A stretch of DNA of 16,534 nt, from the NCBI GenBank assembly GCA_964621445.1, contig CAZUNO010000042.1, positions 1 to 16,534 of the forward strand, in the 5' to 3' direction. Each line of letters begins with the position of its first letter. The stretch's first letter is position 1. Below the pieces are notes generated by a model. The model ran no database searches. It saw only the letters and a list, made by a program, of their open reading frames with translations, and was not told where the DNA came from. This DNA is from Candidatus Hadarchaeota archaeon (lineage in GTDB: Archaea; CAYQAE01; CAYVLA01). Below are positions 692 through 16,106 of the stretch, piece after piece. The position numbers were made by a program, and so were the translations under genes.

Positions 692-3334
692 CTACATGTC
701 GTTGATTTCCCTTGGCTTCCGAATTCCCGATGGCACCGTTTTTAAGTGGCGAGATATGTAGAAAAGTAATGCTATTGTTAGTGTCACTGTGGTGAGCGGG
801 GTCTCGTTGATCTCTGCTCTGGCATCGGCAATCATTTCCAGCACCTGTTGGCTCAGTCGCTTGCACTCGCTGTAGTGTCCTTTCTTTAGTTGGCGGTCCC
901 CGGCTTCCAGGTAGATTCTGGCTCTGCCAATATCTATACCTTCTTCCAGAGCTTTCTCGTACTGCGTCGCTGCCTTGTCCAGGAGAACGGTGCTTTCCTT
1001 CTCCCGGATTTTCCTGGTGGCGTTCCCAATTGTCCTGTTCAATCCGACGTAGTCTCCTTCCAGCAGGCATTGCTCTGCTGACTGGGCGAGATCCTTGAAG
1101 AGCGAGACATCGATGCCGATCATTTCGGCATCTTCTATGGCTAGGAGAAATTCGTTGAGCCTGTTCTCGGCCCATGGGTATCCCGGTATCTGCCAGCTGG
1201 TCCCGGCGTTATCATCCAGCGTCTGGGGAAAAAGAGCATGGTCCGAGAACTTGATGTCCATCCACCCGACCTCTGGGCTTGAATTTAGCGGAGCAAACCA
1301 AAGGTCCTCGTTCACTCTCTTCATCTCGTCAACGAAGAACCGGCTCAGCGCCAGGGTTCCGGGGCCTGCCAGGTCCTTGGGTGGTTTTTGCCAGCCATTT
1401 ATCCCCCAGACAAGGAAGCAATGGTTGGATTCAATTCCAATGGTACCCTCTGACGCATTGTAGTAGATAACGGTGGACCCACGATCCGGCAGCCCCCTGG
1501 GGATGTATACCGGGCCTACTTTGGCTAATTCCCTGCAGTGGATGGTTTCTTCCCGTTCGTTGTTCTCCTCGCGGAGTTCGTCCACCTCGTTAGCAGAATC
1601 AGCGGCAAGCTTCAACCGCCAGTCACCTCTTTGGGCCGTCCAGTTCATCTGAACTTCTTTAACCTCTCCTGGCTCCAAGCCCTGCACAACGGCAGTGTGT
1701 TCCAGACCAGCTCCTTTCAGCGCAAGGTCGACCTTGAAGGGCCCCGATGGGTCGTTGCCATGGTTGGTTAGGGCCGCCCGTAGCGTGGTTCTTTCCCCGG
1801 GTTGAACTGGCATTCCCTCACACCCGAGTTGGGTCACGGCGAGATCCGGCCTGGGTCTCGACACTATTGTCTGGATGGAGATCCGGTTGTTATTTTCTTT
1901 GAGACCTTCATCAACCTGGTTCGGGTCATCTACAATGACCTCTATATCCACCGCCCCCTCCCGAGCGGGAGTCCACTCCAATCCTATCGATGTTTCTTGC
2001 CCCGGTTCCAGGCCTTTGAGAGGTACCTCGGACCGGGGTGTTCCGTCTAGAAGGAACATCACGGTGAAATTCTTAGACTTTAACTGGCCGTTGTTCCTGA
2101 CTTGGGTGGATATCGTGCACTTCCCGCCTGGACGAGGATAGGAAGGGTCTGTCGAGAGAGATACGGCCTCCAGGTCCGGAAAAGGTTTCTTATTTAACTC
2201 AAACTCGTCGAATACCGTTCCGCTAGGGAGCTGGGCCTGGCAGTGCAGCATGCCTCCCTTAACGTCGAGCAGGGCGTAGTGGTGCTCGCTCAATGCGACC
2301 TGGGACCAGGACGGCCTTGGTGAGGTAACTGAGTGAAGGCCGGCTCCCCCTCCCGCCGTTGTAAGATGAATTGTGCCCAGATCGGCATCAACTACCTTGC
2401 CATCCCGAACCGGAAGTGTCCTCTCGTACATATGGTTGTGGCCGCAGAACACAACATCCACGTGGTGCCTGTTCAGCACGTTCTCCCAGGCACGCCTTAC
2501 CCCGAGATCCGATCCATGGTAACCCGAGCTGTACATTGGTCTATGGAAATAGACGAACTTCCAGGTGGCATTGGTCGAGGCCAGATCCTCCTTCAACCAA
2601 TCCAGCTGTGAACCGGTAAGCTGATACTCGGTTGTCAAAGCAACGAAATGCGCATTTCCATAGTCAAAAGAATACCACTGTTCATTCCCTGGTAAAGCAA
2701 ACTGCTCGAAGTACTCCGGGGCATTCTCATCATGATTCCCAATAGCAGGCATCAATACTTTGTGAGAAAGGAGCTCCCTGTGATCCTCGAACCAGCTGTC
2801 CCATTGGCTCTGTTCACGCCCCGTACTAACCAGGTCCCCGGTGTGAAGAACGAAACTAGCCTGGCTTTCCAGAATTGCCAGGCTTATTGACCTCCTCACC
2901 TGGTAACCCGACCTGTCATCACCCACCACCGCAAAACTGAACCGGTCTGCCGAACCAGAAGGAGCGGTGGTGAAATTAAGATCCTCACTCCAAGAACGAG
3001 GATGACCGCACCTGTAATGATAGAGTGTTGAGGGGCTAAGACCAAGAAGCTCGACCTCATGAACCTCCCCGGGGCTCCCTGAAGCAGTGAGCCCGTAAGA
3101 TCGGTCAACACCATACTCAACCACAGACGGCTCCACCGAATCGGTGCGCCATGCCACGGTGACCGACTGGGTAGGATCCGATTCCCAGCTCAAATGAACA
3201 TGCCTAGGCCGGGCCCAAGCGTTGGACGAAAGAAGAACCAGAAGCAACACCAGTAAGTTGCCCACCACCATCCACTGCTTGCCAGAGAACCTTGAGCCCC
3301 GTGGTATATTTGTCACGGAAAACCATGATCCCAA
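692..3334 (-). CDS. Secreted, C-terminally anchored purple-acid-phosphatase-like metallophosphoesterase with FN3-like, two CARDB and CBM-like domains
   Basis: Signal peptide (LLVLLLVLLSSNAWA), PAP N-terminal FN3-like domain (PRHVHLSW..VTVAWRT..VEYG..LSPSTLYHYRCG), MPP motifs GD, GDLV, GNHD, VYFH and GHNH, two CARDB repeats (PDL...VRNNG...VDE..ENNN), hydrophobic C-terminal segment followed by basic residues. A TATA-like TTTATTAA on - at 3338-3345 suggests the true start is GTG 3316 or ATG 3271. Confidence 0.9.
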   Translation of the reverse strand: MGSWFSVTNIPRGSRFSGKQWMVVGNLLVLLLVLLSSNAWARPRHVHLSWESDPTQSVTVAWRTDSVEPSVVEYGVDRSYGLTASGSPGEVHEVELLGLSPSTLYHYRCGHPRSWSEDLNFTTAPSGSADRFSFAVVGDDRSGYQVRRSISLAILESQASFVLHTGDLVSTGREQSQWDSWFEDHRELLSHKVLMPAIGNHDENAPEYFEQFALPGNEQWYSFDYGNAHFVALTTEYQLTGSQLDWLKEDLASTNATWKFVYFHRPMYSSGYHGSDLGVRRAWENVLNRHHVDVVFCGHNHMYERTLPVRDGKVVDADLGTIHLTTAGGGAGLHSVTSPRPSWSQVALSEHHYALLDVKGGMLHCQAQLPSGTVFDEFELNKKPFPDLEAVSLSTDPSYPRPGGKCTISTQVRNNGQLKSKNFTVMFLLDGTPRSEVPLKGLEPGQETSIGLEWTPAREGAVDIEVIVDDPNQVDEGLKENNNRISIQTIVSRPRPDLAVTQLGCEGMPVQPGERTTLRAALTNHGNDPSGPFKVDLALKGAGLEHTAVVQGLEPGEVKEVQMNWTAQRGDWRLKLAADSANEVDELREENNEREETIHCRELAKVGPVYIPRGLPDRGSTVIYYNASEGTIGIESNHCFLVWGINGWQKPPKDLAGPGTLALSRFFVDEMKRVNEDLWFAPLNSSPEVGWMDIKFSDHALFPQTLDDNAGTSWQIPGYPWAENRLNEFLLAIEDAEMIGIDVSLFKDLAQSAEQCLLEGDYVGLNRTIGNATRKIREKESTVLLDKAATQYEKALEEGIDIGRARIYLEAGDRQLKKGHYSECKRLSQQVLEMIADARAEINETPLTTVTLTIALLFYISRHLKTVPSGIRKPREINDM

Positions 3335-4557: not shown

Positions 4558-4929
4558 CACAGGGGTTAGCTTGGTATCCACAGCTACACTGGAAAAACAC
4601 ACCTCCAGTGGTATGTCTTCAGAGAGTAAATAGAGTGTCTAACTTCCTCCATGGAAATGAAAGTGCTTTCTGCCCCTTTAGGGTTGGTAACACTCATTTT
4701 CAGGACCGTGATAACCTTCACCACTAAAGGTAGGTTATGTGATAGCTGTGGTGACTATTTTCATCTCCTGTTCTACCAAGATTTGTGGCAAAATATGCTA
4801 TAAGGTTTTCTCTCTTTAGCCGTTAGGGTGATCATGTCGTTTTTCTGATGATTGCTTTGTTATTGATTTGGTCTATTTATTGCCTTCATTGGTTGAGGTT
4901 GGGCGTATTTTTGGCGGTTGGTTTGGATT

Positions 4930-5405
4930 CTGGGTTTGTCGTAGGAGGGGTTTTGGTATTGTTGGTTGGTGATGTTTTTTAGCGCTGTTTCAGCTTCTCT
5001 TTTTTTCTCTTCTCTGTCTCGTGGTGGTGGGTGCCTGTCTACGAATTGGACCAGCTCTCTGTACATGTTGTGTAGGACTTGTGCTAGGGGTGCTCCTTCT
5101 TCTGTGTCGGCAAGCTCATCTACCTCTCTTAGCAGGTGGCTCCGGCATCTTTGGAGGTCGGAGCCAGGGGGGTCATGGCGGTGTAGGCGGGGGTGCGATC
5201 TCCACCCGTCGCTGACGATGACTCCGTTGAACTTTTTGCCCAGCACTGTGGCGGGGACTTTCTTCCCGCGGGTGTGGCGGACTGTGTATAGCACGGCGTT
5301 ACGGGTTTCGAAGGTCCACACCTAGCCCTGCTCGGTTAAGGCTGACCCCTGTCTCGTCAGCGTACACCACGTCGGTTTCCCTTACCTGGCGATGGATATC
5401 CTTTG
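4930..5405 (-). pseudogene. IS66-family transposase internal fragment (frameshift plus nonsense codon)
   Basis: IHRQVRETDVVYADETG in one frame, then WTFETRNAVLYTVRHTRGKKVP..LGKKFNGVIVSDGW..LQRCRSHLLRE in another. The frameshift and an in-frame TAG lie near 5322-5335. Both termini are missing and boundaries are approximate. Confidence 0.88.
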
Positions 5406-5500: not shown

Positions 5501-5589
5501 AAAAGCCGCAAGTATTTTTAAGTAAAGCTGTAAATTCTTTGGGTAACGAACAAAGAGTTCGTTATTTGTATACAATGTTTAGGAGGTGA
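5501..5589 (+). promoter_or_regulatory. gvpA promoter region with TATA-like box, inverted repeats and RBS
   Basis: TTTTTAAG at 5515-5522; TAACGAAC-N5-GTTCGTTA at 5544-5564; palindrome TTGTATACAA at 5566-5575; RBS GGAGGTGA at 5582-5589. Confidence 0.55.
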
Positions 5590-5597
5590 AAAGACGC

Positions 5598-5816
5598 ATG
5601 GTAAGTCAGCAACCGGATGTTTCTAGTTTGGCGGAAGTCCTGGACAGGGTTCTGGACAAGGGCGTTGTTATCGATGCTTGGGTCAGGGTCAACCTGGTGG
5701 GCATTGAGATCCTGAGTGTGGAAGCCAGAGTGGTGGTAGCTTCAGTCGATACCTATCTCCACTACGCGGAAGAAATGGCTAAGATAGAACAGGCAACCAT
5801 AAGTGCCCCCGCATAG
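5598..5816 (+). CDS. gvpA: Major gas vesicle shell protein GvpA
   Basis: [59 protein letters not shown] is canonical archaeal-type GvpA. ATG 5598 is correctly spaced from the RBS; the track's GTG 5586 lies inside the RBS. Confidence 0.98.
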
Positions 5817-5837
5817 AGTAAAATGGATAGCGTTGGC

Positions 5838-5867
5838 GAGGAACTGTATGATGGTTCCTCTTTTTTT
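5838..5867 (+). terminator. Hairpin plus T7 tract downstream of gvpA
   Basis: GAGGAAC(tgt atg atg)GTTCCTC immediately followed by TTTTTTT. Confidence 0.75.
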
Positions 5868-6038
5868 GTGAAATTGATTCTGGTTGAGGCCATTGCGTCT
5901 TTGAGAGGAGGTTGTCTATGCATATATCGAAATTCGTTACGTACGGCGTATCCGGGTTCGAATTACACGCAACTAAAGGTCAGGTAATGTTGGGGAGAAC
6001 GAAAATGCAGGAATTTCGTAAGAAGGAGATGAATTGAT

Positions 6039-6995
6039 TTGGCAAGCAGTCAAACAAAACAGCCCGTACAGAGAGTTGTCGAGGAAGAAGACCATAAACC
6101 TGAAGATATGGATAATGTCCAACCCAAACATCTTATCCCTAGACGCCCACTGTTCGTGGAGACGGATGAAGTAAAGAATCTGAAGGATAGGGCCATACAC
6201 TGGATCTCGGTTGGCAGTCCAATACATATCATCGGGCCCACCGGATGCGGCAAGACCACGATGGCCATGGAAATCGCATACGAACTGGAGGCGCCGGTAA
6301 CTTGGATAAACGGCGATGACCAGATAACCACCGAGGACCTGGTCGGCGGGTATAAGGAGTTCGAACAACAGACCTACAGAGATAGATTTGTGCATAATGT
6401 TTTTCGTGGAAAGGACAAACTTCAGGCAACCTGGGTCGATAATCCGCTAACCATAGCATGCAAAAACGGCTACACCTTCGTATACAATGAGTTTTCACGT
6501 ACAAAGCCGGAGGCCAACAATGTCCTCCTTTCCGTCTTGGAGGAAGGAATTCTGGAACTTCCGAACATGTCTGGGAATGAGAGGTACATCGAGGTCCACC
6601 CTGAATTCAATGCAATCCTCACCAGCAACTCAGTTGAGTATGCGGGGATTCATCGGGCGCAAGACGCCCTTCTAGATCGCATTGTCGGGTTGTATATGGA
6701 TTATTATGGGCCTGAAACGGAGCTGAAGATAGTCACAGCACACACGGATCTGCCTATGGAGAATGTAAAGGAATTGGTGAGGATTATCAGGGGCTTGAGA
6801 AGCCAGCTTGATCCAGCCGAAAGACCTGGCACCAGGGCCTGTGTTATGGTAGCAAAATCCGTTGAGGAATTCGAAGAGGTAGATGACCAGCTTCTGAAGC
6901 AACTCATACTTGACGTGCTGACCTCAAAGACAAAGGGTATAGAAGATATGAGGAAGAAGGAGAAGATTCTCTCCAATCTTGTCAATAAAGACTAA
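6039..6995 (+). CDS. gvpN: Gas vesicle AAA+ ATPase GvpN
   Basis: Walker A GPTGCGKT, DLVGGY, WVDNPLTIAC, YNEFSRTKPEANNVLLSVLEEG and TSNSVEYAGIHRAQDALLDR motifs. TTG start; ATG 6108 is an alternative. Confidence 0.96.
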   Translation: MASSQTKQPVQRVVEEEDHKPEDMDNVQPKHLIPRRPLFVETDEVKNLKDRAIHWISVGSPIHIIGPTGCGKTTMAMEIAYELEAPVTWINGDDQITTEDLVGGYKEFEQQTYRDRFVHNVFRGKDKLQATWVDNPLTIACKNGYTFVYNEFSRTKPEANNVLLSVLEEGILELPNMSGNERYIEVHPEFNAILTSNSVEYAGIHRAQDALLDRIVGLYMDYYGPETELKIVTAHTDLPMENVKELVRIIRGLRSQLDPAERPGTRACVMVAKSVEEFEEVDDQLLKQLILDVLTSKTKGIEDMRKKEKILSNLVNKD

Positions 6996-7013
6996 ATGAG
7001 GTGAGTAAAGGAC

Positions 7014-7370
7014 ATGGCAGGAAACGACAATGTTGTGGAAAGGAAGTATGGATCCTCTGGGGTGGATACGCACCTGGCTGATGAAGATACCGCAGCCCTC
7101 CCCCTGGAAGAGATCGGAGCGAAGGCATTAGCCATATTGGATAGCCTCCTCGGCGGTAAGAAAGAGGCAGACGATGTCATCGCTGTGCGAAGGGAAGATG
7201 ATGAATGGGTGGCCACCGTGGAGAGCATAGAGAGGAGAGCGGTTCCCGATACCCAGGACATCATGGGTGAATACGAGGTCCGGATGGATTTGCAAGGACA
7301 ACTTCTGGACTACAAGCGGATTGGTCTTCGTAGAAGGTGTGAGCTGCAATACCAAGGGGATTTTGAATAA
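7014..7370 (+). CDS. gvpO: Gas vesicle protein GvpO
   Basis: WVATVESIERRAVPDTQDIMGEYEVRMDLQGQLLDYKR GvpO signature; follows gvpN. Confidence 0.92.
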   Translation: MAGNDNVVERKYGSSGVDTHLADEDTAALPLEEIGAKALAILDSLLGGKKEADDVIAVRREDDEWVATVESIERRAVPDTQDIMGEYEVRMDLQGQLLDYKRIGLRRRCELQYQGDFE

Positions 7371-7381
7371 ATAACTAGCAG

Positions 7382-7909
7382 GTGACCAAGGAGAAGGTCG
7401 TTGAATTGAATAGCTATAGCAACTGCCAGCAGGAAGAAGGTAAGGCCATGCAGGCCAGGGCAAAGGCGCGCCAAAGAGAAGTTAGGAAAAGGCACCAACA
7501 AAAGGCGAAAACCATAAACCGGAGATTGAGGAATACCAACCGTAAGCTTACCCATAATAAAGAATTCCATGAGAATGTTCGGGCAGCAAGAAAAAAACAG
7601 AGAGAAGCAAGAGAAAGGCATCTGATGAAAACGAGGGCCATAAAGCAGAAACTGGACGTTATACACCGGCGACAAAAGCTTCGGAAGCTTGGACAGATTA
7701 CCAATAAATCCAAAAGCAGTAATTCTACCGAGCAAAACTTTCCTGAGGAGAGAGTTAAGCGGAGAACCTTTGCAGGGTTCAGGAATAGGGATCTATCCTG
7801 GCTTAGCTTGCGTGGGAAAGGTCGGAAGGCACATCCTATATCGCATAGAAGGTCACAGTCTGTTGTGAACAAGACGAAAAATACCGGAGGAAAATCAGAT
7901 GACGAATAA
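7382..7909 (+). CDS. Highly basic R/K/Q-rich helical protein, possibly GvpI-like
   Basis: Fills the operon gap; KAMQARAKARQREVRKRHQQKAK recalls the basic N-terminus of haloarchaeal GvpI. Low complexity makes homology uncertain, and the start is uncertain (7382, 7406 or 7448). Confidence 0.65.
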   Translation: MTKEKVVELNSYSNCQQEEGKAMQARAKARQREVRKRHQQKAKTINRRLRNTNRKLTHNKEFHENVRAARKKQREARERHLMKTRAIKQKLDVIHRRQKLRKLGQITNKSKSSNSTEQNFPEERVKRRTFAGFRNRDLSWLSLRGKGRKAHPISHRRSQSVVNKTKNTGGKSDDE

Positions 7910-8015
7910 TATGAAGCTGAAAATACTTAGTGCCAAATGGTGGCTCCCAGCTTCAATAGGATTCAGGAGTCCATCTATACGGCGGGAAAACCCTGGAGGT
8001 TCTGGGGATGACTGA
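7899..8015 (+). CDS. Small 38-aa ORF bridging the basic protein gene and cdc48
   Basis: RBS GGAGGA at 7886-7891, ATG 7899, [38 protein letters not shown], overlapping both neighbours. Confidence 0.4.
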   Translation: MTNNMKLKILSAKWWLPASIGFRSPSIRRENPGGSGDD

Positions 8016-10257
8016 GGAGGGGGACGTCGAGCTACGGGTCGCTGAGGCGAGGCATAGAGATGTGGGTAGGGGAATAGCCCGTATAGAGACCGGTGTCATG
8101 TCGCGGCTGGGGGTGGTGAGCGGAGATGTCATTGAGCTTCAGGGGAAGAGAACCGTTCCCGCACTTGTTTGGCCTGGCTATCCAGATGATACGGGAAGTG
8201 AAATAGTCAGAGTGGATGGCAATATCAGGGGTAATCTGAAAGTAGCTCTCGATGACAGGATAAAGATCAGGAAGGCCAAGGTGAGCGAGGCCAAAGAGAT
8301 CACCGTTATTTCTAGCCAACGAGTTAGAATTGCTGGCGGTCCAGCGCATGTACGAAGGGTGTTACAGGGAAGACCAGTGGTCAAAGGACAAAACGTTAGA
8401 ATCCAAGTGTTGGGCAGCCCACGTACCTTTACCATTCAGGATACCAATCCGGAAGATGTAGTCCTAATGCGGCCCGATACGAGGGTCAATATTAAGACCG
8501 CAGAAACCGGCAAACCTCCTGAAACAAAGGGCACCCGAGTGACCTACGAGGACATTGGAGGCCTGAGGAGAGAAATTGAGCTTGTCCGTGAAATGGTTGA
8601 ACTCCCTCTCCGCCACCCGGAGCTATTCCAGCGCATGGGGATAGAACCGCCCAAAGGGATCCTTCTTTACGGGCCTCCAGGAACTGGGAAGACACTGATA
8701 GCCAAGGCTGTGGCGAATGAGACATTCGCCAACTTCCTATTCATCAGCGGGCCCGAGGTCATGGCTCGTTATTATGGTGAGAGCGAGCAGAGAATCCGAG
8801 AAATCTTTCAAAAGGCGGAATCCAACTCTCCGGCCATCATTTTTATTGACGAGTTTGACTCCATCGCCCCTAAGAGAGAAGAGGTTGGAGGCGAGAAACA
8901 AGTTGAAAAGAGGGTGGTGGCCCAGCTACTCTCTCTCATGGACGGTCTAGAGACTCGTGGAGAGGTGGTTGTAATAGCCGCCACTAACAGGCCTGGGTTG
9001 ATAGATGAAGCTTTACGTCGAGGCGGCCGGTTTGACCGAGAGATAGAGATAGGTGTACCTGATAGAAATGGTAGAAAGGAAATACTTCAGGTTCATACCC
9101 GGGGAATGCCGCTTGCGGATGATGTGAACCTCAAAAATCTGGCGGATTTAACTCATGGATTTGTTGGCGCTGACCTCTCTTCGCTGTGTAAGGAGGCAGC
9201 TATGCATGCGCTGCGAGAGGTAGCCCGGAAGATAGAGTTTGAAAAGGAAATACCGCCCGAAGTTTTGAAGGAACTTCAGGTGACAAATCAGGACTTCAAC
9301 CAGGCACTAAGAAATGTGGAACCCAGCGCAATGCGCGAGGTATTCGTTGAGGTTCCCCAAGTGAACTGGGATGATGTTGGCGGGCTTGAGGAATCGAAGA
9401 GACATCTCATTGAGGCCGTTGAGTGGCCTCTGAGATTTCCGGAGGCGTTTGAAACACTAGGGACGGCACCGGCAAAAGGGGTTCTCCTCTTTGGTCCTCC
9501 TGGCACCGGCAAGACCATGCTGGCAAAGGCAGTGGCCACCGAGAGCAACGCCAACTTCATAGCCATAAAGGGTCCGGAGATCTTCAATAAATTCGTGGGA
9601 GAGTCAGAGAGGGCTGTCCGAGAGATATTCCGCAAGGCAAGACAGGTCGCCCCGGCAGTGATATTTTTCGACGAGATCGAGTCCATCGCGTCAGACCGGG
9701 GCTTTGCTACCGACTCTCAGGTAGGAGAACGAGTAGTGAGCCAGCTCCTAACTGAGCTGGACGGAATAGAGGATACCAAGCAGGTCGTAGTCTTGGCGGC
9801 CACCAACCGGCCGGACCTTGTTGACTCTGCACTCCTTCGTCCAGGTCGCCTAGAACGCCTGATATATGTGTGTCCACCCAACCAAAAAGAAAGAGAGGAA
9901 ATTTTCAACATACATCTTTCCGGTCTTTCCCTGGATCCAAGTGTAGATGTTGAGGAGCTTTCCAGAATGACGGAGAGCTACGTTGGCGCCGACATCGAAT
10001 CCCTTTGCCGACAGGCGGCAGTCCTGGCAATGAGGAATTTCATCAAGCCCAGTATGGATCGAGACTCGGTGGTGAAGGGTATCAAGAATGTACAGATAGG
10101 AAAAAACGATCTTCATCATGCCGTCGCCTCTCTGAAGCCGGTAGCATTGCATGAAAAGCTTACGGAATATGTGGAAATAGCGGAGGGCTTCGCCAGACCC
10201 ATGGAAGCTGAGATATCTCAGATGCCGAAGGGAGGGACCAGTGACGATGAGGGATGA
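8008..10257 (+). CDS. cdc48: CDC48/VCP/VAT family double-ring AAA+ ATPase
   Basis: N domain ([18 protein letters not shown]), VTYEDIGGL, two GPPGTGKT Walker A motifs, Walker B IFIDE and IFFDE, SRH motifs [11 protein letters not shown] and [19 protein letters not shown] linker. Confidence 0.97.
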
Positions 10258-11140
10258 AAATTGGTTTTCCTCTTCCCTTGGCCAGGACAAGATTGACCTG
10301 GATCAGCTCTTAACCAGCATCCATCAGCCGGGTCATGCTCTCCACTTGTATGGACCTTCAGCCGACAGGTATGCCATCCATGAGGCCTTTCTAAACTCGG
10401 CTCACGGAGAATCTGATGCTCTCTATATCGCAGATATAGGTTCAAACACGGCTAGTGCACTTCAAAAGACGCATCCGGAATTGGAGATCGTGCCCGCCAA
10501 AGAAGTTAAAGCCTGCTTGACACGATCAATCAACGGGCTTTCAATCCTTATGGACGGGTCATCAATGTTATCAGCTAACGCAGAGCTCTTCGACCAAGGT
10601 GAGGGCGATATGCCCTTTATCGAGGGTAGACTCGAAAAGCTTAGTAGGACTAACCGTATCCTGTGTACATATGATGTGACCAGTACACCCTCTGATCTAC
10701 TTAAGCAGGTAGTGGAATGCCACGACAAGCTGATTCTTACCAATGAAGATGTCACCATGCTTTCATCGCCTGCGTTATCCGACCTTCAAGCCGCCGACGA
10801 TGGTATCTTGGAGAGGTTTGTCAAGAACTACCTCGACATGTTAGTGTTGACATTGGTGATGAAGAAACCCATGTGCGGGACTGAAATAATGAAAACAATT
10901 CACAGAAATTTCAATGTGCTGGTGAGTCCAGGCACAATCTACCCCCTACTTCACCAGTTGGAGGATGAAGGTCTACTGAGATGTGAATACGGAATGAAGA
11001 AAAAGGTGTACCGACACGTCTCGTCGCGACGGGACCAAATTCTGGATATGATTTCTGACCATCTTCAAATAAACTCAGTGCTGGGGACAATGCTGTCCCA
11101 AACAAAGGAACGGACCGCGGAGCAGGAGGTGTATGATTGA
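10241..11140 (+). CDS. Transcriptional regulator: N-terminal MEDS-like domain fused to a PadR-family (GvpE-like) winged HTH
   Basis: N-terminal GHALHLY...ALYI...ILMDG...E..L......ILCTYD...VVECHDKLI is a MEDS/DcmR pattern. C-terminal VKNYLDMLVL..PMCGTEIM..FNVLVSPGTIYPLLHQLEDEGLL..KKVY is PadR-like. Start is GTG 10241 or ATG 10247. Confidence 0.85.
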   Translation: MTMRDENWFSSSLGQDKIDLDQLLTSIHQPGHALHLYGPSADRYAIHEAFLNSAHGESDALYIADIGSNTASALQKTHPELEIVPAKEVKACLTRSINGLSILMDGSSMLSANAELFDQGEGDMPFIEGRLEKLSRTNRILCTYDVTSTPSDLLKQVVECHDKLILTNEDVTMLSSPALSDLQAADDGILERFVKNYLDMLVLTLVMKKPMCGTEIMKTIHRNFNVLVSPGTIYPLLHQLEDEGLLRCEYGMKKKVYRHVSSRRDQILDMISDHLQINSVLGTMLSQTKERTAEQEVYD

Positions 11141-11796
11141 GAAAGGCGAAAAGAGGAAAATACGTTTATTGTGTAGCCCCATCAAATGGTGAAAAAAGGA
11201 GTTACGGTAATCTGGGCATGGATGGTGAGGAAGTTTATACCATCAGCTATAAGCAGGTGGCAGCGGTAGTCAGCGATGCCAAGGTGAAGGAATACGAACC
11301 GAACCCGGAAAACGCAAGGAAACATGACCAAGTGATAAGGAAGGTGATGGAGGATTGCACTGTGTTACCCATGGCCTTGGGGATGGTGTTCAAAGATAAG
11401 AGGACGATGCTATTAGTGATCAGGGCCTCATACCGGGCGATTAAGAAAAGCCTAGATGCTTTTCAAAATAAGGTGGAGCTAGGGGTTAAGATCATTGTTC
11501 CTCAAGACCAGACTGACCATGCCGATGACCATTCATTTCAGAAAGCCAAGTCTGACATTCTTAGTTCCCTTTCCGAATTGGCCTGCAAAACTAAGGAAGG
11601 CAGGCTTTTCAGTGATAGATTGTTGCTAAATGCTTCTTTCCTAGTACAAAGAGATGAAACTGAGGCTTTCTCGAAGACGCTTGGTGATCTGGATGATAAA
11701 TATCGATCTCTAGAAGCCAAGTACAGCGGCCCATGGGCTCCCTATAACTTCGTTAATATAAAGATAGCTGGCCAGGGCCCAGGAGGAAGGCACTGA
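11137..11796 (+). CDS. gvpF: Gas vesicle protein GvpF (GvpL/F family)
   Basis: YVYCV, VAAVVSD, HDQVI, TVLPMALG, KVELGVK, LLNASFLV and YSGPWAPYNFV motifs; precedes gvpG. Confidence 0.92.
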   Translation: MRKAKRGKYVYCVAPSNGEKRSYGNLGMDGEEVYTISYKQVAAVVSDAKVKEYEPNPENARKHDQVIRKVMEDCTVLPMALGMVFKDKRTMLLVIRASYRAIKKSLDAFQNKVELGVKIIVPQDQTDHADDHSFQKAKSDILSSLSELACKTKEGRLFSDRLLLNASFLVQRDETEAFSKTLGDLDDKYRSLEAKYSGPWAPYNFVNIKIAGQGPGGRH

Positions 11797-11807
11797 GGAG
11801 GAGAAGC

Positions 11808-12143
11808 ATGGCACTCATAATTGATGACTTGGCCGACCTCAGCGGGTTCTTTTTAGTCGGCATGCCGTGGTCAATGTTCCTATCTCGGCTGCAAGATATA
11901 GCGTACTCGCAGATGTATGATGCACAGGCTCTAAAGGATAAGATCAGGGAGAATCAGATGCTATACGAACTCGGAGAGATCTCAGAGGGCGAATATGAGG
12001 AGAACAACGAGGAGTTACTGCGAAAATTGGAGCTGGCCGAGCGTTACAGCCAATTCGATCTTGAAACCAGAGCTGACAGGCTCAGCGATAAGACGCAGGA
12101 TGACCAGGAAGATGAAAAGCTTATTCTAGGAGGAGGAAACTAG
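11808..12143 (+). CDS. gvpG: Gas vesicle protein GvpG
   Basis: IIDDL...MYDAQALKDKIRENQMLYELGEISEGEYEE..EELL; RBS GAGGAGG. Confidence 0.92.
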   Translation: MALIIDDLADLSGFFLVGMPWSMFLSRLQDIAYSQMYDAQALKDKIRENQMLYELGEISEGEYEENNEELLRKLELAERYSQFDLETRADRLSDKTQDDQEDEKLILGGGN

Positions 12144-12500
12144 ATGTCAGGACTAAGTCCCAGCCGAGAAGGTGGACAAGGTTTAGCTGATGCCATAGAC
12201 AAGATACTGGACAAGGGACTGGTGATAAACGCCGATATCACCGTCTCACTGGCTGGAGTGGAACTACTCGGCATAAAGATAAGGGCCGCGGTAGCCTCGC
12301 TAGAAACCGCTGCCAAGTATGGACTTGAATTTCCTTCCGGCACCAATCTAAATACACCGGGATGGAAGAATGCGGGTATTGGCATCATGACCTGCCCTGC
12401 CTGCGGAAATGAAACCGGGAGGAGCACCTTCCTTGAAAAAGGGTGCCCGATATGTGGATGGAATGGGTCTCCCCCATCCAGAGAGGTTGCTACGACATGA
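12144..12500 (+). CDS. gvpJ: Gas vesicle protein GvpJ with C-terminal CxxC..CxxC zinc ribbon
   Basis: GvpA-like core LADAIDKILDKGLVINADITVSLAGVELLGIKIRAAVASLETAAKYGLEFPSGT; tail CPACG-x11-CPICGW. Confidence 0.92.
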   Translation: MSGLSPSREGGQGLADAIDKILDKGLVINADITVSLAGVELLGIKIRAAVASLETAAKYGLEFPSGTNLNTPGWKNAGIGIMTCPACGNETGRSTFLEKGCPICGWNGSPPSREVATT

Positions 12501-12817
12501 CCGTGGAAATAGACGAAGACAACCTCAGCAAGGGGCTACTTGGGTTGGTTATGGCACTAGTTGAGATCATAAGAGACGTGCTCGAGGAACAAGCCCTGAG
12601 AAGAATGGAGGGAGAAGAACTAACCGATGATGAGGTGGAGAGGCTAGGTACATCCCTCATGGAGCTGGACAAGGCAATCCAATCGATCAAGGACCAGCAC
12701 GAACTGGAGGACACCGTTGACCAGGTTAAGAGTAGCCTAGATGATGTGGCTGACGAGGCACTGCGCACGCTTATTGACCCTGAAAAATGGAGGGAACAAC
12801 AGATTGCCAGCCATTAG
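12497..12817 (+). CDS. gvpK: Gas vesicle protein GvpK
   Basis: GLLGLVMALVEIIRDVLEEQALRRMEGEELTDDEVERLG signature; ATGA overlap with the gvpJ stop gives start 12497. Confidence 0.94.
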   Translation: MTVEIDEDNLSKGLLGLVMALVEIIRDVLEEQALRRMEGEELTDDEVERLGTSLMELDKAIQSIKDQHELEDTVDQVKSSLDDVADEALRTLIDPEKWREQQIASH

Positions 12818-12857
12818 AACAAGAGCAGGGCACGGGGAAATAGAGGACACAGAGACC

Positions 12858-13634
12858 ATGGAATGCGAGGGCAGATATATCTACTGCATGTGTAAGGCCG
12901 AAGAACCGGTAACCCTGGGCAAAATCGGAATCGGGAACAGTGAGGTTTACTCCATTTGCCATCAGGGCGTCGCAGCCATGGTCCATATCTGTAAAGCAAA
13001 GCCCTACGAATCATCCGATGAGGAGAGAGTCAAGGAATGGGTCCTGTCTCATCAATACACGATAGACAAGGCGACGGAAAAATTTGGAACGGTAATCCCT
13101 TTCACCTTTGACACCATATTCAAGGGCGGCGATGAGAAAGTCAAGGAATGGATTGGCCAGCACCTATATAGGCTGAGGCAAAAGCTTGATTCCCTTCAAA
13201 ACCTGGACGAATACGGGGTTCAGATTTACTGGGATGCTAGAGCCTCCAAGCATGGGATGGGGACCAATGGTGAACAGGAAGGCCAACAAGAAAAATCTAG
13301 AAAGAAGGGAGGTATGGGCATGGCCTACCTGATGAAGCGAAAGGCAGAAAAGGAAGCCGAAAGATCTAGCCAGGAGAAAGCGGATGAGTTGCGCAATGAC
13401 CTGTTTACACGCATCAAGGCCTATACACAAGAAGCCAAAACTTCCAAGTCCACCCCCAAGTTCGCTAATAGAGAGAGAACTGATAAGAAGCTCTTAGTGG
13501 ATCTTTCCTGTCTGGTTTCCAGGGATTCACTGTCTGGTCTGAGTAAGGAGCTGGAGGAAATAGACGGCCGGAGCGACTTTGAAGTCCGGTTTACAGGGCC
13601 TTGGCCACCGTACTCCTTCGTGCAAGGTTTCTAG
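12858..13634 (+). CDS. gvpL: Gas vesicle protein GvpL (GvpL/F family)
   Basis: EGRYIYC, PYESSDEERVKEWVLSHQ, FGTVIPFTFDTIF, GMAYLMK and RFTGPWPPYSF motifs; lies between gvpK and gvpM. Alternative TTG start at 12804. Confidence 0.92.
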   Translation: MECEGRYIYCMCKAEEPVTLGKIGIGNSEVYSICHQGVAAMVHICKAKPYESSDEERVKEWVLSHQYTIDKATEKFGTVIPFTFDTIFKGGDEKVKEWIGQHLYRLRQKLDSLQNLDEYGVQIYWDARASKHGMGTNGEQEGQQEKSRKKGGMGMAYLMKRKAEKEAERSSQEKADELRNDLFTRIKAYTQEAKTSKSTPKFANRERTDKKLLVDLSCLVSRDSLSGLSKELEEIDGRSDFEVRFTGPWPPYSFVQGF

Positions 13635-13657
13635 TGCAAAATAGGGAGCTTTTTAAC

Positions 13658-14248
13658 ATGCAACCCACGAGAGACCGCGAATGCACCATCACCGACCTAC
13701 TGAACAGGGTCCTTGACAAGGGGGCCATTATCATTGCAGATGTTGTGATAACTCTGGGTGGGGTGCCCCTAATAGGTGTGAATTTGAAGGCGGTAATAGC
13801 GGGAATGCAAACCATGCTTGACCAGGGTCTAATGGAGGAATGGGACAAGGAGATCCGATCCAATCATGGGGAAGAGGCATTGGAAGGTGAAAGTGAGGAG
13901 AAAGTTATGGCAGGCTTCGTTGGCTCCTACTGTAAGAAGAGAGGGCCAATTAGGGCCTGGAAGTCCGGAAGGATATGCGTGACTGACAAGAACCTTGCTT
14001 TGTTGCAGATCGGGGAAAAGCAGCCTGATGTAATAATTGCCCTCTCTGAGATTCGACAGGTTTCTCTGGTCAATATCTCATCGTTCATCGGGGTCCCACT
14101 TCAGGGTCTAGTGGTTTCAACTAATTCAGCTGGGTCCTGGTTAATGAAAACGGCAGATGTCTCTGCACTGGGGCGGCTTATCAACCGGGAAGCGCAACTG
14201 CCCGGTGATTTTTCTAACCAACAAGGTGGATTAATTGCAAATGCTTGA
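13658..14248 (+). CDS. gvpM: Gas vesicle protein GvpM with C-terminal PH/GRAM-like extension
   Basis: MQPTRD..ITDLLNRVLDKGAIIIADVVITLGGVPLIGVNLKAVIAGMQTMLDQGLMEEWD is GvpM-type, followed by about 120 extra residues. RBS GGGAG precedes ATG 13658. Confidence 0.88.
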   Translation: MQPTRDRECTITDLLNRVLDKGAIIIADVVITLGGVPLIGVNLKAVIAGMQTMLDQGLMEEWDKEIRSNHGEEALEGESEEKVMAGFVGSYCKKRGPIRAWKSGRICVTDKNLALLQIGEKQPDVIIALSEIRQVSLVNISSFIGVPLQGLVVSTNSAGSWLMKTADVSALGRLINREAQLPGDFSNQQGGLIANA

Positions 14249-14278
14249 TAGATAACTGGGATACGGTTGATCCTAATT

Positions 14279-14863
14279 CTAGCGTATATTCTTTATCCTG
14301 ATGTCATTTTGAAGATTCATCTTCAATCGATGTTTGGCTCCCAGGAACAGTAGCCCCGTCTCTCCTTCCTTCAATGTTGAATTGATTCTTTTTGCAATGT
14401 ATTTGTCCCTTTTTCGCAACAAATCATGTTTTCGCGATGCATATTGGCGTTTTGCTTGGTTTGCTGGTGGGGTGGGTTCCATAGATGATTTGATACCATC
14501 ATATTCGATCTTCAACAAATCCGGGTCCTCAGTTCCCTCCACGGTTGCCCCCATTTCCATCAGCTTTTTCAGAAGCTTGAAGTTTCTACTACCGCGTTCT
14601 GCAGCCTCACGTACGATTCTGGCCTCCTCACCGCACTGAGGAAGGCCGTCTTGGTAGATTCTCACATTCACCCAGTCGACATCTAGTTTGGTTATTTTTC
14701 TTTCCAGATTATCCCAGAACGCCTTAATTTTTCTGGACTTCCTTCGCCACCCACCTGGACCAAATTTGGAGAGTGTTTTCTTCCTGATTCCGTCTCTTAG
14801 GCTTCCCATGTCGGAAGGGGCGTGAATTATGCGTGCTATGAATAGGTTTCTCACGGAAACCAC
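14279..14863 (-). CDS. Uncharacterised protein with TraB/PrgY/GumN (TIKI)-like motifs
   Basis: RIIH, IYQDGLP, EGTED and C-terminal RDKYIAKRI..L...GLLFLGAKH, resembling the R[ND]xxMA...GAxH ending of TraB/TIKI-type proteins. Start may be GTG 14854. Confidence 0.7.
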   Translation of the reverse strand: MVSVRNLFIARIIHAPSDMGSLRDGIRKKTLSKFGPGGWRRKSRKIKAFWDNLERKITKLDVDWVNVRIYQDGLPQCGEEARIVREAAERGSRNFKLLKKLMEMGATVEGTEDPDLLKIEYDGIKSSMEPTPPANQAKRQYASRKHDLLRKRDKYIAKRINSTLKEGETGLLFLGAKHRLKMNLQNDIRIKNIR

Positions 14864-15008
14864 GGCTTTAATCGGCGTTTATTTTATCTTGGCTCTATCT
14901 AATGAGTCCTACATAATCGTTCCTGCCCGTTTCCGAAGAAGTGGACTCCTATAGGGGAGTTATTACGGAATAGGTTCCATTGATTAAGATCTTTGAGGAA
15001 TTCAGGAA

Positions 15009-15503
15009 TCAAGCTTTTTTTAACTTGATCTCCAGTACTCCATTTTTGCAGGTAAGATGGCTATCTTCTTTTACCTCTGCCGGGAGTTCAATCTTCTTAT
15101 CGTAGGTGCGGTTTTTACCTTCGGCTGAAATTCTTAATTCGGTTCCTTGGACCTCTATAGTGACATCTTTCTCTTCTATGCCAGGGACCTCGGCGATAAC
15201 AACAACTTCTGACTCCCTTTCAAACACATCGACGAGGGGTTCTCTGACCTCCTCATGTCCTTGTCCCTTTTCAAGGGTACCGAAGCGGTCGACGGTGAGA
15301 GGTCTTCCCACTCCACCGACCTTAACTGAGAAACCATAGACGCCTTTAGTTTGCTTCTGGGTTTGCACTTCGCCTTCCGAAATTTTGGAAGCTAGGTCTA
15401 TTAGGTCCCCTACCCCCTTGAATATTCCTCCCAGATTGACACCAACATCAACGGATGCCGGTTCTTCTTCATTTCTCTTATCCTTTTTTTCTTTTTCATC
15501 CAT
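15009..15503 (-). CDS. gvpH: GvpH / Hsp20 alpha-crystallin family small heat-shock protein
   Basis: GVYGFSVKVGG...EVREPLVDVFE..EVVVIAEVPGIE...YDKKIELPAEV...KNGVLEIKLKK. Hsp20 family is secure; the gvpH label rests on context. Confidence 0.85.
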   Translation of the reverse strand: MDEKEKKDKRNEEEPASVDVGVNLGGIFKGVGDLIDLASKISEGEVQTQKQTKGVYGFSVKVGGVGRPLTVDRFGTLEKGQGHEEVREPLVDVFERESEVVVIAEVPGIEEKDVTIEVQGTELRISAEGKNRTYDKKIELPAEVKEDSHLTCKNGVLEIKLKKA

Positions 15504-15587
15504 TATACCTGCCTCCTATCTATTTCCCATCTATTACCTAGGGCCATAATTCCTGTCATGCAGATAAGTGGAGGGATTCAGTTAAGG

Positions 15588-15893
15588 TCAGCCCTCCTTG
15601 CTCCACTGCTTGTCAAGCAGTTCCTTTTGGTGTTCCCACTGCGCTTTCCTCATCGACCATCTTGTGTTACTGTTAGCCCGAGTAATTTCTATATTCTTTT
15701 TTATATTACCGTCACTTGGCGTTTGGGCATTTTTCCTTCCTCGCTCTCGTTGGTGTTGTTCCTTTATCCTCTTCTTTTCCCTGGCCAATCTTTCAGTCCG
15801 GCGTTCAAGTCTTTCCCGTATGATCCAGCCTCTATCCGCCTGTGAAAGACCCGGTATCCTTATCTCCCGTTGACCTATCTTAGCTTCTGTCAA
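15588..15893 (-). CDS. Basic R/K/E-rich protein, possibly GvpI-like
   Basis: RBS AGGAGG before the TTG; RERLERRTERLAREKKRI...KKNIEITRANSNT; adjacent to gvpH, as gvpI is in haloarchaea. Confidence 0.6.
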   Translation of the reverse strand: MTEAKIGQREIRIPGLSQADRGWIIRERLERRTERLAREKKRIKEQHQRERGRKNAQTPSDGNIKKNIEITRANSNTRWSMRKAQWEHQKELLDKQWSKEG

Positions 15894-15911
15894 ACGGCTT
15901 TCGCCCTCCTT

Positions 15912-16106
15912 CTATTTTCCTTGCATTATCTTCTTTGCTTCTTTTCGAAGTCTGTTGATCTCCTTTTGCATTTCTTTTGACTTTTTATCGGCTTCTTTGG
16001 AAAAATCATCTGACCGTTTTCGCAGTTGCTTGGCACCCTCGAGAATAGTCTCAGGGTTTTCCTTTTCTTTTGTTTTTTTCTTTTTGCTAGTTTTTTTTGA
16101 ACCCAT
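15912..16106 (-). CDS. Small Lys-rich coiled-coil protein, first gene of the convergent unit
   Basis: RBS GGAGGT (16115-16120) lies 8 nt from ATG 16106. MGSKKTSKKKKTKEKENPETILEGAKQLRKRSDDFSKEADKKSKEMQKEINRLRKEAKKIMQGK; its stop abuts the next gene's RBS. Confidence 0.65.
   Translation of the reverse strand: MGSKKTSKKKKTKEKENPETILEGAKQLRKRSDDFSKEADKKSKEMQKEINRLRKEAKKIMQGK

Follow-up and report, generated by a model that had tools for sequence, protein, structure and literature searches.

The window analysed here is the entire 16,534-base contig CAZUNO010000042.1 (C42) of a genome (G000) deposited as Candidatus Hadarchaeota archaeon, and it carries a gas vesicle (gvp) gene cluster between positions 5598 and 16106. 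Intact gvpA, gvpN, gvpO, gvpF, gvpG, gvpJ, gvpK, gvpL and gvpM genes, together with a gvpH of the Hsp20 type, are arranged in two convergent units whose stop codons lie 30 nucleotides (nt) apart. The plus-strand unit (5598-14248) reads gvpA, gvpN, gvpO, orf175, cdc48, medsPadR (coding for a putative regulator, MEDS-PadR), gvpF, gvpG, gvpJ, gvpK, gvpL and a long gvpM; the minus-strand unit (16106-14279) reads orf66, orf101, gvpH and a gene for a TraB-like protein. The outer limits, 5598 and 16106, are the ATG start codons of gvpA and orf66, both preceded by GGAGG-type ribosome-binding sites (GGAGGTGA before gvpA and TAGGAGG before orf66). GGAGG-like sites served to refine the starts of gvpA (5598), gvpK (12497), gvpL (12858), gvpM (13658) and orf66 (16106), and each of the 16 genes has an open frame and a ribosome-binding site. 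Most genes along the long plus-strand operon abut or overlap: the overlap is 11-17 nt for cdc48 and medsPadR and 4 nt for both medsPadR/gvpF and gvpJ/gvpK, and gvpG abuts gvpJ. A first-pass annotation of this DNA had described the same gvp inventory, the two convergent units and their tight coupling, and searches with Pfam and NCBIfam found all of these in place.

Three open reading frames (ORFs) matched the Pfam family Gas_vesicle (cut-off, 25 bits): gvpA (5598..5816, +; 60 bits), a single-copy gene for the major shell protein, gvpJ (12144..12500, +; 59 bits) and gvpM (13658..14248, +; 46.5 bits). Their best NCBIfam models were GvpA, GvpJ and GvpM, respectively, and the three genes of this family in the genome all lie on C42. 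GvpO (7014..7370, +; 70.7 bits), GvpG (11808..12143, +; 49.9 bits), GvpK (12497..12817, +; 75.4 bits), whose refined ATG overlaps the gvpJ stop, and the HSP20 domain of the GvpH-like small heat-shock protein (sHsp; 31.4 bits) also exceeded the curated Pfam cut-offs. GvpL_GvpF was matched twice above its cut-off, by gvpF (11137..11796, +; 176 bits) and by gvpL (12858..13634, +; 199 bits), where residue 44 of the long ORF is the first of the Pfam domain. Above the NCBIfam cut-offs were GvpN, a MoxR-like AAA+ ATPase (6039..6995, +; TIGR02640, 336.9 bits against 266.8), GvpA (NF006874, 127.9 against 100) and GvpL (NF045778, 216.4 against 200). Matches to the haloarchaeal NCBIfam models for J, M, G and F stayed below those models' own cut-offs (halo_gas_GvpJ, 94.3 bits; halo_gas_GvpM, 80.7 bits). 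In Halobacterium, the genes A, O, F, G, J, K, L and M are the minimal set sufficient for vesicles. Judged by these matches, the window has the haloarchaeal minimal set in full, with gvpN and an sHsp-type gvpH in addition.

No gvpC or gvpD had been recognised by the first-pass annotation, and none of the 24 window ORFs scanned matched the Pfam families Gas_vesicle_C or GvpD. PF01304 gave no match genome-wide, a weak negative since the model was silent even in controls, and matches to GvpD_P-loop occurred in the genome only on contigs other than C42. Among these, a 228-residue ORF of the GvpD_P-loop family (KaiC-like; 94 bits) lies between two DUF835-like ORFs (G000:C2:163362-168634), far from the gvp genes. 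Of the GvpD/GvpE regulators, GvpD was unmatched in the window, and no GvpE-specific model was used. No Rfam family was found in the window.

The product of gvpJ has a C-terminal CxxC...CxxC tail, in which a CPACG...CPICG pair at residues ~84-105 resembles a zinc ribbon; a weak match to DUF7560 (E 3e-4) stays below the cut-off. The C-terminal extension of GvpM, of ~120 residues, also occurs in G003, a genome of the same family as the host, and in Bathyarchaeia loci. Leads on this extension are weak (CheF-arch, E 0.012; Atlas clusters of the GvpA family with GRAM/PH-like tails, scores <=0.85).

The gene inserted directly upstream of gvpF, medsPadR (10241..11140, +; start at 10241 or 10247, in either case overlapping the cdc48 stop), had been annotated as a MEDS-PadR fusion. 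The PadR half of that description stood, with a PF03551 score of 35.5 bits against a cut-off of 27 and a profile that matches 14 PadR sequences in the PDB. The MEDS half did so for the family rather than for the window protein: PF14417 was matched by 25 of 26 aligned relatives at E <= 1 (best, 8.8e-9), but the window protein itself scored only 15.7 bits against a cut-off of 29.8, which tells against the assignment. In an AlphaFold2 model (mean pLDDT 77.9) compared by Foldseek, the C-terminal domain matched PadR 4esf (TMt 0.82), and the N-terminal alpha/beta domain was nearest to proteins of the RecA/KaiC type (FlaH 4yds, TMt 0.51; Elp4/5/6; F1 subunits). The P-loop position reads G-P-S-A-D-R, without GK[ST]. 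From a secondary-structure map, the invariant residues H32, H35, D105, C142, D145 and H161 would sit on, or follow, the strands bordering the nucleotide site in RecA-like folds.

A word-index search returned at least 150 relatives of MEDS-PadR, the named ones from Bathyarchaeia, Thermoplasmatota and 'Methanobacteriota'. A 26-sequence profile run against a collection of species genomes found 314 relatives; the best 80 loci were retained and examined by tblastn with the window proteins. This synteny search, which the first-pass annotation had proposed, placed gvp genes beside the MEDS-PadR match in 45 of the best 80 loci (L015-L059), usually in the order A-N-O-[MEDS-PadR]-F-G-J-(H)-K-L-M. The N-terminal domain was matched in 43 of the 45; one further locus is truncated at the end of its contig, and another has a PadR-only gene between gvpO and gvpF. 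In the remaining 35 of the best 80 loci the PadR domain alone was matched and there were no gvp genes. By record title, 19 of the gvp-linked loci come from Bathyarchaeia/Bathyarchaeota and 12 from Methanoperedens, and the others include Methanocellales, Methanosarcinales, Methanosarcina sp., Thermoplasmatales, a 'Hadarchaeota' metagenome-assembled genome (MAG), Aenigmatarchaeota and Micrarchaeota. Two carry bacterial labels and were probably mis-binned: L024 and L059 are titled Nitrospirae bacterium and Pseudomonadota bacterium, yet contain archaeal-type gvp clusters, and for L024 mis-binning is likely because it groups inside Methanoperedens in both the GvpN and the CDC48 trees. CDC48 (>=49% identity) was encoded within the fetched DNA of 23 of the 45 gvp-linked loci. 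The TraB-like gene was found in seven, in all of them 0-15 nt downstream of cdc48.

A second line of evidence came from 41 related genomes. GvpA occurs in three of them, G000, G003 and G005 (the last from another phylum), and so do full-length MEDS-PadR and the TraB-like protein (both at E <= 1e-60). A weaker, shorter paralogous family of TraB-like proteins is found in the gvpA-less genomes G001, G002 and G034. In Methanosarcina, a full MEDS-PadR gene lies between gvpO and gvpF in 2 of 59 genomes, and five further genomes have a 130-residue PadR-only gene; in the four such loci examined gvpA was always within ~1.5 kb, and a TraB-like gene was adjacent in two. A second type of Methanosarcina cluster, with the PadR-only gene divergent from gvpA, was seen in L111, L112, L113 and L114 (genomes G068, G060, G081 and G061). 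The conserved linkage and the co-occurrence support the view that MEDS-PadR, CDC48, the sHsp and the TraB-like protein are true members of the cluster rather than passengers, with the caution that related genomes are non-independent samples. The accessory set, which the first-pass annotation had called atypical, is in fact the usual one in gvp clusters of Methanoperedens, Bathyarchaeia, Methanosarcinales and other uncultured archaea.

As annotated, cdc48 (8008..10257, +) encodes a CDC48/VAT-type double-ring AAA+ unfoldase, with a TIGR01243 score of 1006 bits against a cut-off of 802.65 and with CDC48_N, CDC48_2, two AAA and two AAA_lid_3 domains. The HbYX motif, with its penultimate Tyr, docks Cdc48 on the 20S proteasome. 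The window protein ends in ...TSDDEG, without the penultimate Tyr, and this residue was found in 0 of 19 distinct gvp-linked CDC48s versus 5 of 10 other paralogues. The host genome has three CDC48 paralogues. In a tree of 34 rows the gvp-linked copies fell into two clades, each beside ordinary paralogues, suggesting at least two recruitments: clade A unites Methanoperedens and Bathyarchaeia (19 rows, support 97), and clade B holds the window, G003, the 'Hadarchaeota' MAG and one Methanoperedens paralogue. That the gvp-linked CDC48s are not one clade, and that a clade-B member (G106:C35) lies away from gvp genes, weighs against a dedicated vesicle function and would fit a stress ATPase of general function that often travels with such clusters. 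In a Thermoplasmatales gvp locus (L017:9200-12724), a CDC48 ORF of 1174 residues shows similarity in two blocks ~1.3 kb apart and may contain an intein.

The gvpH-like gene (15009..15503, -) codes for an sHsp with 62% identity to the G003 copy; its PF00011 score of 31.4 bits is above the cut-off of 20.8, and its score with the archaeal Hsp20 equivalog model NF041800, 127.5 bits, is below the cut-off of 140. In the portion of a review covered here, Halobacterium GvpH is described as preventing the aggregation of GvpM and as pairing with the basic GvpI (PMC9501494, Table 2). On contig C9 of the host, hsp20, a gene for a SurR/Phr-like regulator and cdc48 stand side by side (G000:C9:20716-24259; L143:217-3760). 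This operon is an ordinary heat-shock module, which the gvp cluster parallels; the Phr and HSR1 regulons include an sHsp and an AAA+ ATPase in the part of the source consulted (PMC10653856).

The position of cdc48 and medsPadR allows another reading, in which the two form a GvpD/GvpE-like switch: CDC48 would unfold or remove the regulator, or the MEDS domain would recruit CDC48, and it is transcription that would be controlled. GvpD is a P-loop protein of the RecA/KaiC-like kind, and the predicted fold of the MEDS domain is RecA/KaiC-like as well. Moreover, the overlapping cdc48 and medsPadR genes sit at the gvpD-gvpE position upstream of gvpF in the window, in G003 and in G005, and GvpD lowers the activator GvpE, according to the sections of the review used (PMC9501494). 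However, cdc48 lies far from medsPadR in the clusters of Methanoperedens and Bathyarchaeia, where it adjoins TraB-like or sHsp genes, and CDC48 and sHsp form a stress pair elsewhere in the host genome. Homology of the MEDS domain to GvpD was rejected, the profiles of 26 MEDS-PadR and nine haloarchaeal GvpD proteins showing no significant likeness (hhalign; probability 0.44%, E 0.13). GvpD-like logic is thus an analogy only, a limit that bears on the reading we favour too, and we consider a CDC48/MEDS-PadR switch unlikely.

The TraB-like gene (14279..14863, -) encodes a protein of 194 residues, for which the name given by the first-pass annotation gained support from the predicted fold but not from Pfam: PF01963 (TraB_PrgY_gumN) scored 22.2 bits, below the cut-off of 26.8. 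The same family was matched by 22 of 40 relatives at E <= 0.1 (best, 2e-5), and 863 cluster representatives were related to the window protein at E <= 0.001, most of them stand-alone proteins of ~200 residues. When the AlphaFold2 model (pLDDT 95.5) was compared with 48,161 chains by VIA-align, ChaN (Z 9.7; 145 residues, 3.5 Å) and HopBA1 (Z 8.3) came out on top, followed at Z ~6 by EreC, a succinoglycan protein, the Pasteurella toxin domain (PMT) and RRSP. Foldseek returned no match to the model at E <= 0.001, and the profile had no meaningful match among PDB sequences. Residues H14, E112, R152 and H178 are invariant in 40 sequences. ChaN, Tiki, TraB and EreA belong to one superfamily, and this His/Glu/Arg/His set resembles what we take to be its motif pattern. 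The model makes the protein a candidate hydrolase with a ChaN/Tiki-type fold. The sub-threshold Pfam score counts against this assignment and, unlike in the seven loci above, the gene is not adjacent to cdc48 in the window, which speaks against the reading that we favour. A complex prediction for CDC48 with the TraB-like protein gave scores of 0.00 and 0.00, which is evidence neither way.

The closest relatives of all gvp genes of the window are found in G003, with identities of 92% for GvpA, 70% for GvpN and 69% for CDC48. The gene order is identical (A-N-O-basic ORF-CDC48-MEDS-PadR-F-G-J-K-L-M plus the convergent TraB-like/gvpH/orf101 unit), and the flanks differ, the G003 cluster standing amid PIN, AbiEii and plasmid-type genes. 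G003 carries an additional ArsR-type helix-turn-helix gene between gvpH and the TraB-like gene (L014:5406-5981), which the window does not have. A GvpN tree, another check that the first-pass annotation had suggested, joined the window and G003 as a fully supported pair, sister (85) to all other clusters of the type, and a long, fully supported branch parts this pair from haloarchaeal GvpN. Separation from Halobacteria was thereby addressed; the tree comprised archaeal GvpN only, row L147 was dropped, and three haloarchaeal rows (L144, L145 and L153) on very long branches are probably wrong ORFs. GvpN above the cut-off was found in two of the five genomes of the phylum-level group, G000 and G003; the genus of G003 also includes G001, which has neither gvpA nor gvpN. 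Because the order is shared with G003, the flanks differ and G001 lacks both genes, the cluster looks like an accessory island of long standing in the host family.

An island of this kind might carry its accessory genes as passengers, that is, a heat-shock-type module and a PadR regulator travelling on a shared mobile element with no role in vesicles. A fragment of an IS66-family transposase (4860..5321, -; DDE_Tnp_IS66, 49.5 bits) borders the island, outside the vesicle machinery; the surroundings of the G003 island, the polyphyletic recruitment of CDC48 and the weaker TraB-like paralogues in the gvpA-less genomes G001, G002 and G034 also point this way. Against them stand the fixed position of the accessory genes within the operon, with overlapping stops and starts, their linkage in 45 of 45 loci and their co-occurrence with gvpA in 3 of 3 genomes versus 0 of 38. 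Furthermore, HbYX is consistently lost in the gvp-linked CDC48s, and the linkage persists across phyla in which GvpN identity is only ~50-57%. We regard a passenger status of these genes as quite improbable.

The three basic orphans of the first-pass annotation proved to be so, with isoelectric points (pI) of 10.1-11.6 and no known family in Pfam or NCBIfam. They are orf175 (7382..7909, +; pI 11.6; start uncertain, at 7382, 7406 or 7448), orf101 (15588..15893, -; pI 10.9; strong ribosome-binding site) and orf66 (15912..16106, -), a small coiled-coil-like protein. Orf101 is clearly conserved in G003 (z 10, with 0 of 500 shuffles as high). At the position matching orf175, G003 has a basic ORF whose local alignment (z 4.9, 0 of 500 shuffles as high) indicates weak conservation, and orf66 has a weak likeness to a G003 protein of 152 residues (z 4.7, 1 of 500 shuffles as high). 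Since orf101 adjoins gvpH and is strongly basic, and GvpH pairs with the basic GvpI in Halobacterium in the part of the review cited above, it recalls GvpI, and by position and charge only it may be called GvpI-like.

The G003 protein of 152 residues, which heads the convergent unit of that genome, belongs to a type of repeat protein (150-255 residues, ending in (N/E/D)FY(F/Y)G, with no Pfam family) that lies between gvpA and gvpN in 29 related loci (for example L024:528-1295, L054:7274-7750 and L014:3616-4074). We regard it as a candidate for an outer, GvpC-like protein. The window does not have it unless orf66 is a remnant: orf66 is possibly a short relative of this repeat protein that stands beside gvpA in related clusters, and it is without the FYG tail. 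Several families of small basic proteins occur in related clusters and not in the window. Profile hidden Markov models of six small-ORF clusters from other gvp loci found none of their members in the window at E <= 1 (the sole match in the genome was a biased one on C11, E 0.0047), and pairwise comparisons of the orphans with small proteins of other clusters were weak (top z 4-6, medians 0.7-2.3); both results count against the reading that we favour. In 18 loci of the Bathyarchaeia type a DnaK-like gene of 640-670 residues directly follows a second gvpF-like gene (L021, L027, L028, L033, L039-L044, L048, L051-L054 and L057 are among them). The window has neither a DnaK-like (Hsp70) gene nor a second gvpF, and its chaperone side consists of CDC48 and the sHsp.

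The host bin comprises 3.2 Mb in 89 contigs (96% complete, 4.2% contamination), and its phylum-level group in GTDB consists of five species genomes. Identities of aEF-2 were 76-80% within the family, 50% to one other member of the class, 51-52% to genomes labelled Hadarchaeota/Hadarchaeum and 57-58% to a Methanocellales MAG and to G005. About ten relatives stood at 75-87%, and the next were named proteins of Methanobacteriales and Theionarchaea at 63% or less. aEF-2 alone cannot place the host, and the Hadarchaeota label is not borne out by that marker; from sequence comparison the host appears to be a deep lineage. Neither an McrA domain nor mcrA was found in its genome. The first-pass annotation had suspected a lineage not known to make vesicles. 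A literature search found no paper linking gas vesicles to Hadarchaeota, which agrees with this as far as that label applies to the host. The moderate guanine-plus-cytosine (GC) content and the absence of an acidic halophile bias were confirmed: GC is 0.485 in the cluster, and the median (D+E)/(K+R) ratio is 1.26 in 1649 long ORFs of the host versus 2.17 in the ORFs of 12 haloarchaeal loci. The host is a non-halophile.

Several of these data raise the question of whether the cluster is silent or foreign, either because the contig was mis-binned from another organism of the mat or because the island was acquired recently and makes no vesicles in this host. C42 is only 16.5 kb long in a bin with 4.2% contamination, and the GC content of the cluster is below the genome mean of 0.517, at the 7.6th percentile of the genome's 10-kb windows. 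Few genomes of the phylum-level group have gvpN (two of five), and G001 is among those that do not. The window sequence was found in three DNA runs of one microbial-mat study, with no RNA run among the matches listed, and the formation of vesicles by the cluster is a prediction from the genes alone. All of this weighs against an active, native vesicle system. On the other side, the IS66 fragment has a copy with 90.6% protein identity on another contig (C71) of the same bin, each gvp gene has its nearest relative in G003, a member of the same family, and the window and G003 form their own deep branch in the GvpN tree rather than being nested in a donor clade. Moreover, all 16 genes are intact and have ribosome-binding sites. 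A silent or foreign cluster seems very unlikely to us.

Our preferred reading, which we hold to be somewhat more probable than its negation, is that the window carries a complete gas vesicle cluster of the methanogen type with a local MEDS-PadR regulator, a CDC48/sHsp proteostasis module and a TraB-like hydrolase. Our confidence in the individual roles decreases from MEDS-PadR to CDC48 with the sHsp, then to the TraB-like protein and finally to the small basic proteins. MEDS-PadR would be the local transcription factor of the cluster: its degenerate RecA/KaiC-like domain may sense a small ligand or the redox state at the would-be ATP site, and sensing by the MEDS domain would set the activity of the PadR winged helix at gvp promoters. 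CDC48 and the sHsp may be a captured copy of the archaeal heat-shock pair that holds, extracts or unfolds the aggregation-prone hydrophobic proteins GvpA, GvpJ and GvpM, with an action timed to assembly, or to misassembly or collapse of the shell. In this role CDC48 would be a free unfoldase that does not feed the 20S proteasome. The TraB-like protein could be a metal-dependent hydrolase, trimming or degrading either a Gvp protein or material released by CDC48, and the small basic proteins might take the place of GvpI and perhaps also that of a GvpC-like outer protein.

A bolder form of this reading is a dedicated ATP-driven machine with which non-halophilic archaea would build and disassemble vesicles: the HbYX-less CDC48 would extract GvpA-family subunits from shells that are misassembled or have collapsed, the sHsp would hold these subunits, the TraB-like protein would cut them and MEDS-PadR would switch the entire cluster according to a small metabolite or redox cue. 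We consider this version rather doubtful. If true, it would give gas vesicles their first pathway of active disassembly or recycling, and it could explain why archaeal clusters are difficult to express in foreign hosts.

Gas vesicles have been studied in a few haloarchaea, cyanobacteria and bacteria, and they are used as acoustic reporter genes. Outside those models, how vesicles are regulated and kept from aggregating is largely unknown. The window shows in compact form a type of cluster that is widespread in archaea, and it adds a barely sampled archaeal lineage of a microbial mat to those with the genetic capacity for vesicles. It brings together three conserved accessory families for which no record in print was found: the MEDS-PadR sensor-regulator, a CDC48 that looks independent of the proteasome and a protein of TraB/Tiki fold. 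The literature search, which covered openly available papers, among them ones on Methanoperedens and Bathyarchaeota, found no published description of the accessory module in archaeal gvp clusters and, among the papers listed, none bringing together gas vesicles, PadR and CDC48. If the proposed roles hold, these families would be candidates for the missing regulator and for the chaperone or recycling system, and practical helper genes for the expression of archaeal vesicles in other hosts.

Upstream of the cluster lie the IS66 fragment and genes for a flavin mononucleotide (FMN) reductase, a CARDB/purple-acid-phosphatase surface protein and a PAS protein. The 880 residues of the surface protein (692-3334, -), which is secreted or anchored and has no relation to the vesicle genes, include two CARDB domains, a metallophosphoesterase domain and a purple-acid-phosphatase N domain. 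A perfect palindrome, TAACGAAC-N5-GTTCGTTA (5544..5564), lies in the stretch that separates a TATA-like box from the start of gvpA; it is unique in the window and was matched in 5 of 200 shuffles. It is absent upstream of gvpA in the sister genome G003, which tells against a conserved regulatory role, and for this reason we list it only as a candidate operator or 5' hairpin.

With respect to known systems, the TraB-like protein shares its predicted fold with the superfamily of TraB/PrgY/GumN, Tiki, ChaN and erythromycin esterase, matching ChaN, HopBA1, EreC and RRSP, but it is only 194 residues long and stays below the Pfam cut-off. As in the Phr/HSR1 heat-shock regulon of Euryarchaeota, a CDC48-type AAA+ ATPase, an Hsp20 and a winged-helix regulator occur together, to the extent that the source was consulted (PMC10653856). 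In the window, however, this trio is inside a gvp operon, the regulator is a PadR protein with a MEDS sensor and CDC48 is without the penultimate Tyr.

The p-vac and c-vac clusters of Halobacterium salinarum, gvpACNO plus gvpDEFGHIJKLM, have homologues of A, O, F, G, J, K, L and M as well as of N and H in the window, and both have a gene for an ATPase and one for a regulator immediately before gvpF. The ATPase of the window is CDC48 and not GvpD, its regulator is MEDS-PadR and not the activator GvpE, and there is no GvpC. In addition, the window proteins are non-acidic, and GvpN lies on the far side of the long, fully supported branch.

The nearest published counterpart is the cluster of Methanosarcina barkeri, with the order gvpAAA-NOFG-JHKLM (PMC9501494, Table 1). 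In the portion of that review covered, methanogen gvp clusters are without gvpDE, and no regulator, CDC48 or TraB-like gene is named. To that extent, both clusters have the core order A, N, O, F, G, J, K, L, M and neither has gvpC, gvpD, gvpE or a named gvpI; both are non-halophilic archaeal clusters flanked by insertion elements. The first-pass annotation had held that the same gene order in a known vesicle-forming methanogen, as the host, would speak against novelty; the core order is indeed that of M. barkeri, as far as the source goes, so that this objection applies in part, and in the present host no mcrA was found. Its claim of a distinct system with a module of its own can be kept for the dedicated regulatory and remodelling-type genes but not for the core, whose gene order is that of the published methanogen type in the part of the review consulted. 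Unlike M. barkeri as described there, the window has a single gvpA, places gvpH in the convergent unit rather than between J and K, and carries cdc48 and medsPadR inserted between O and F.

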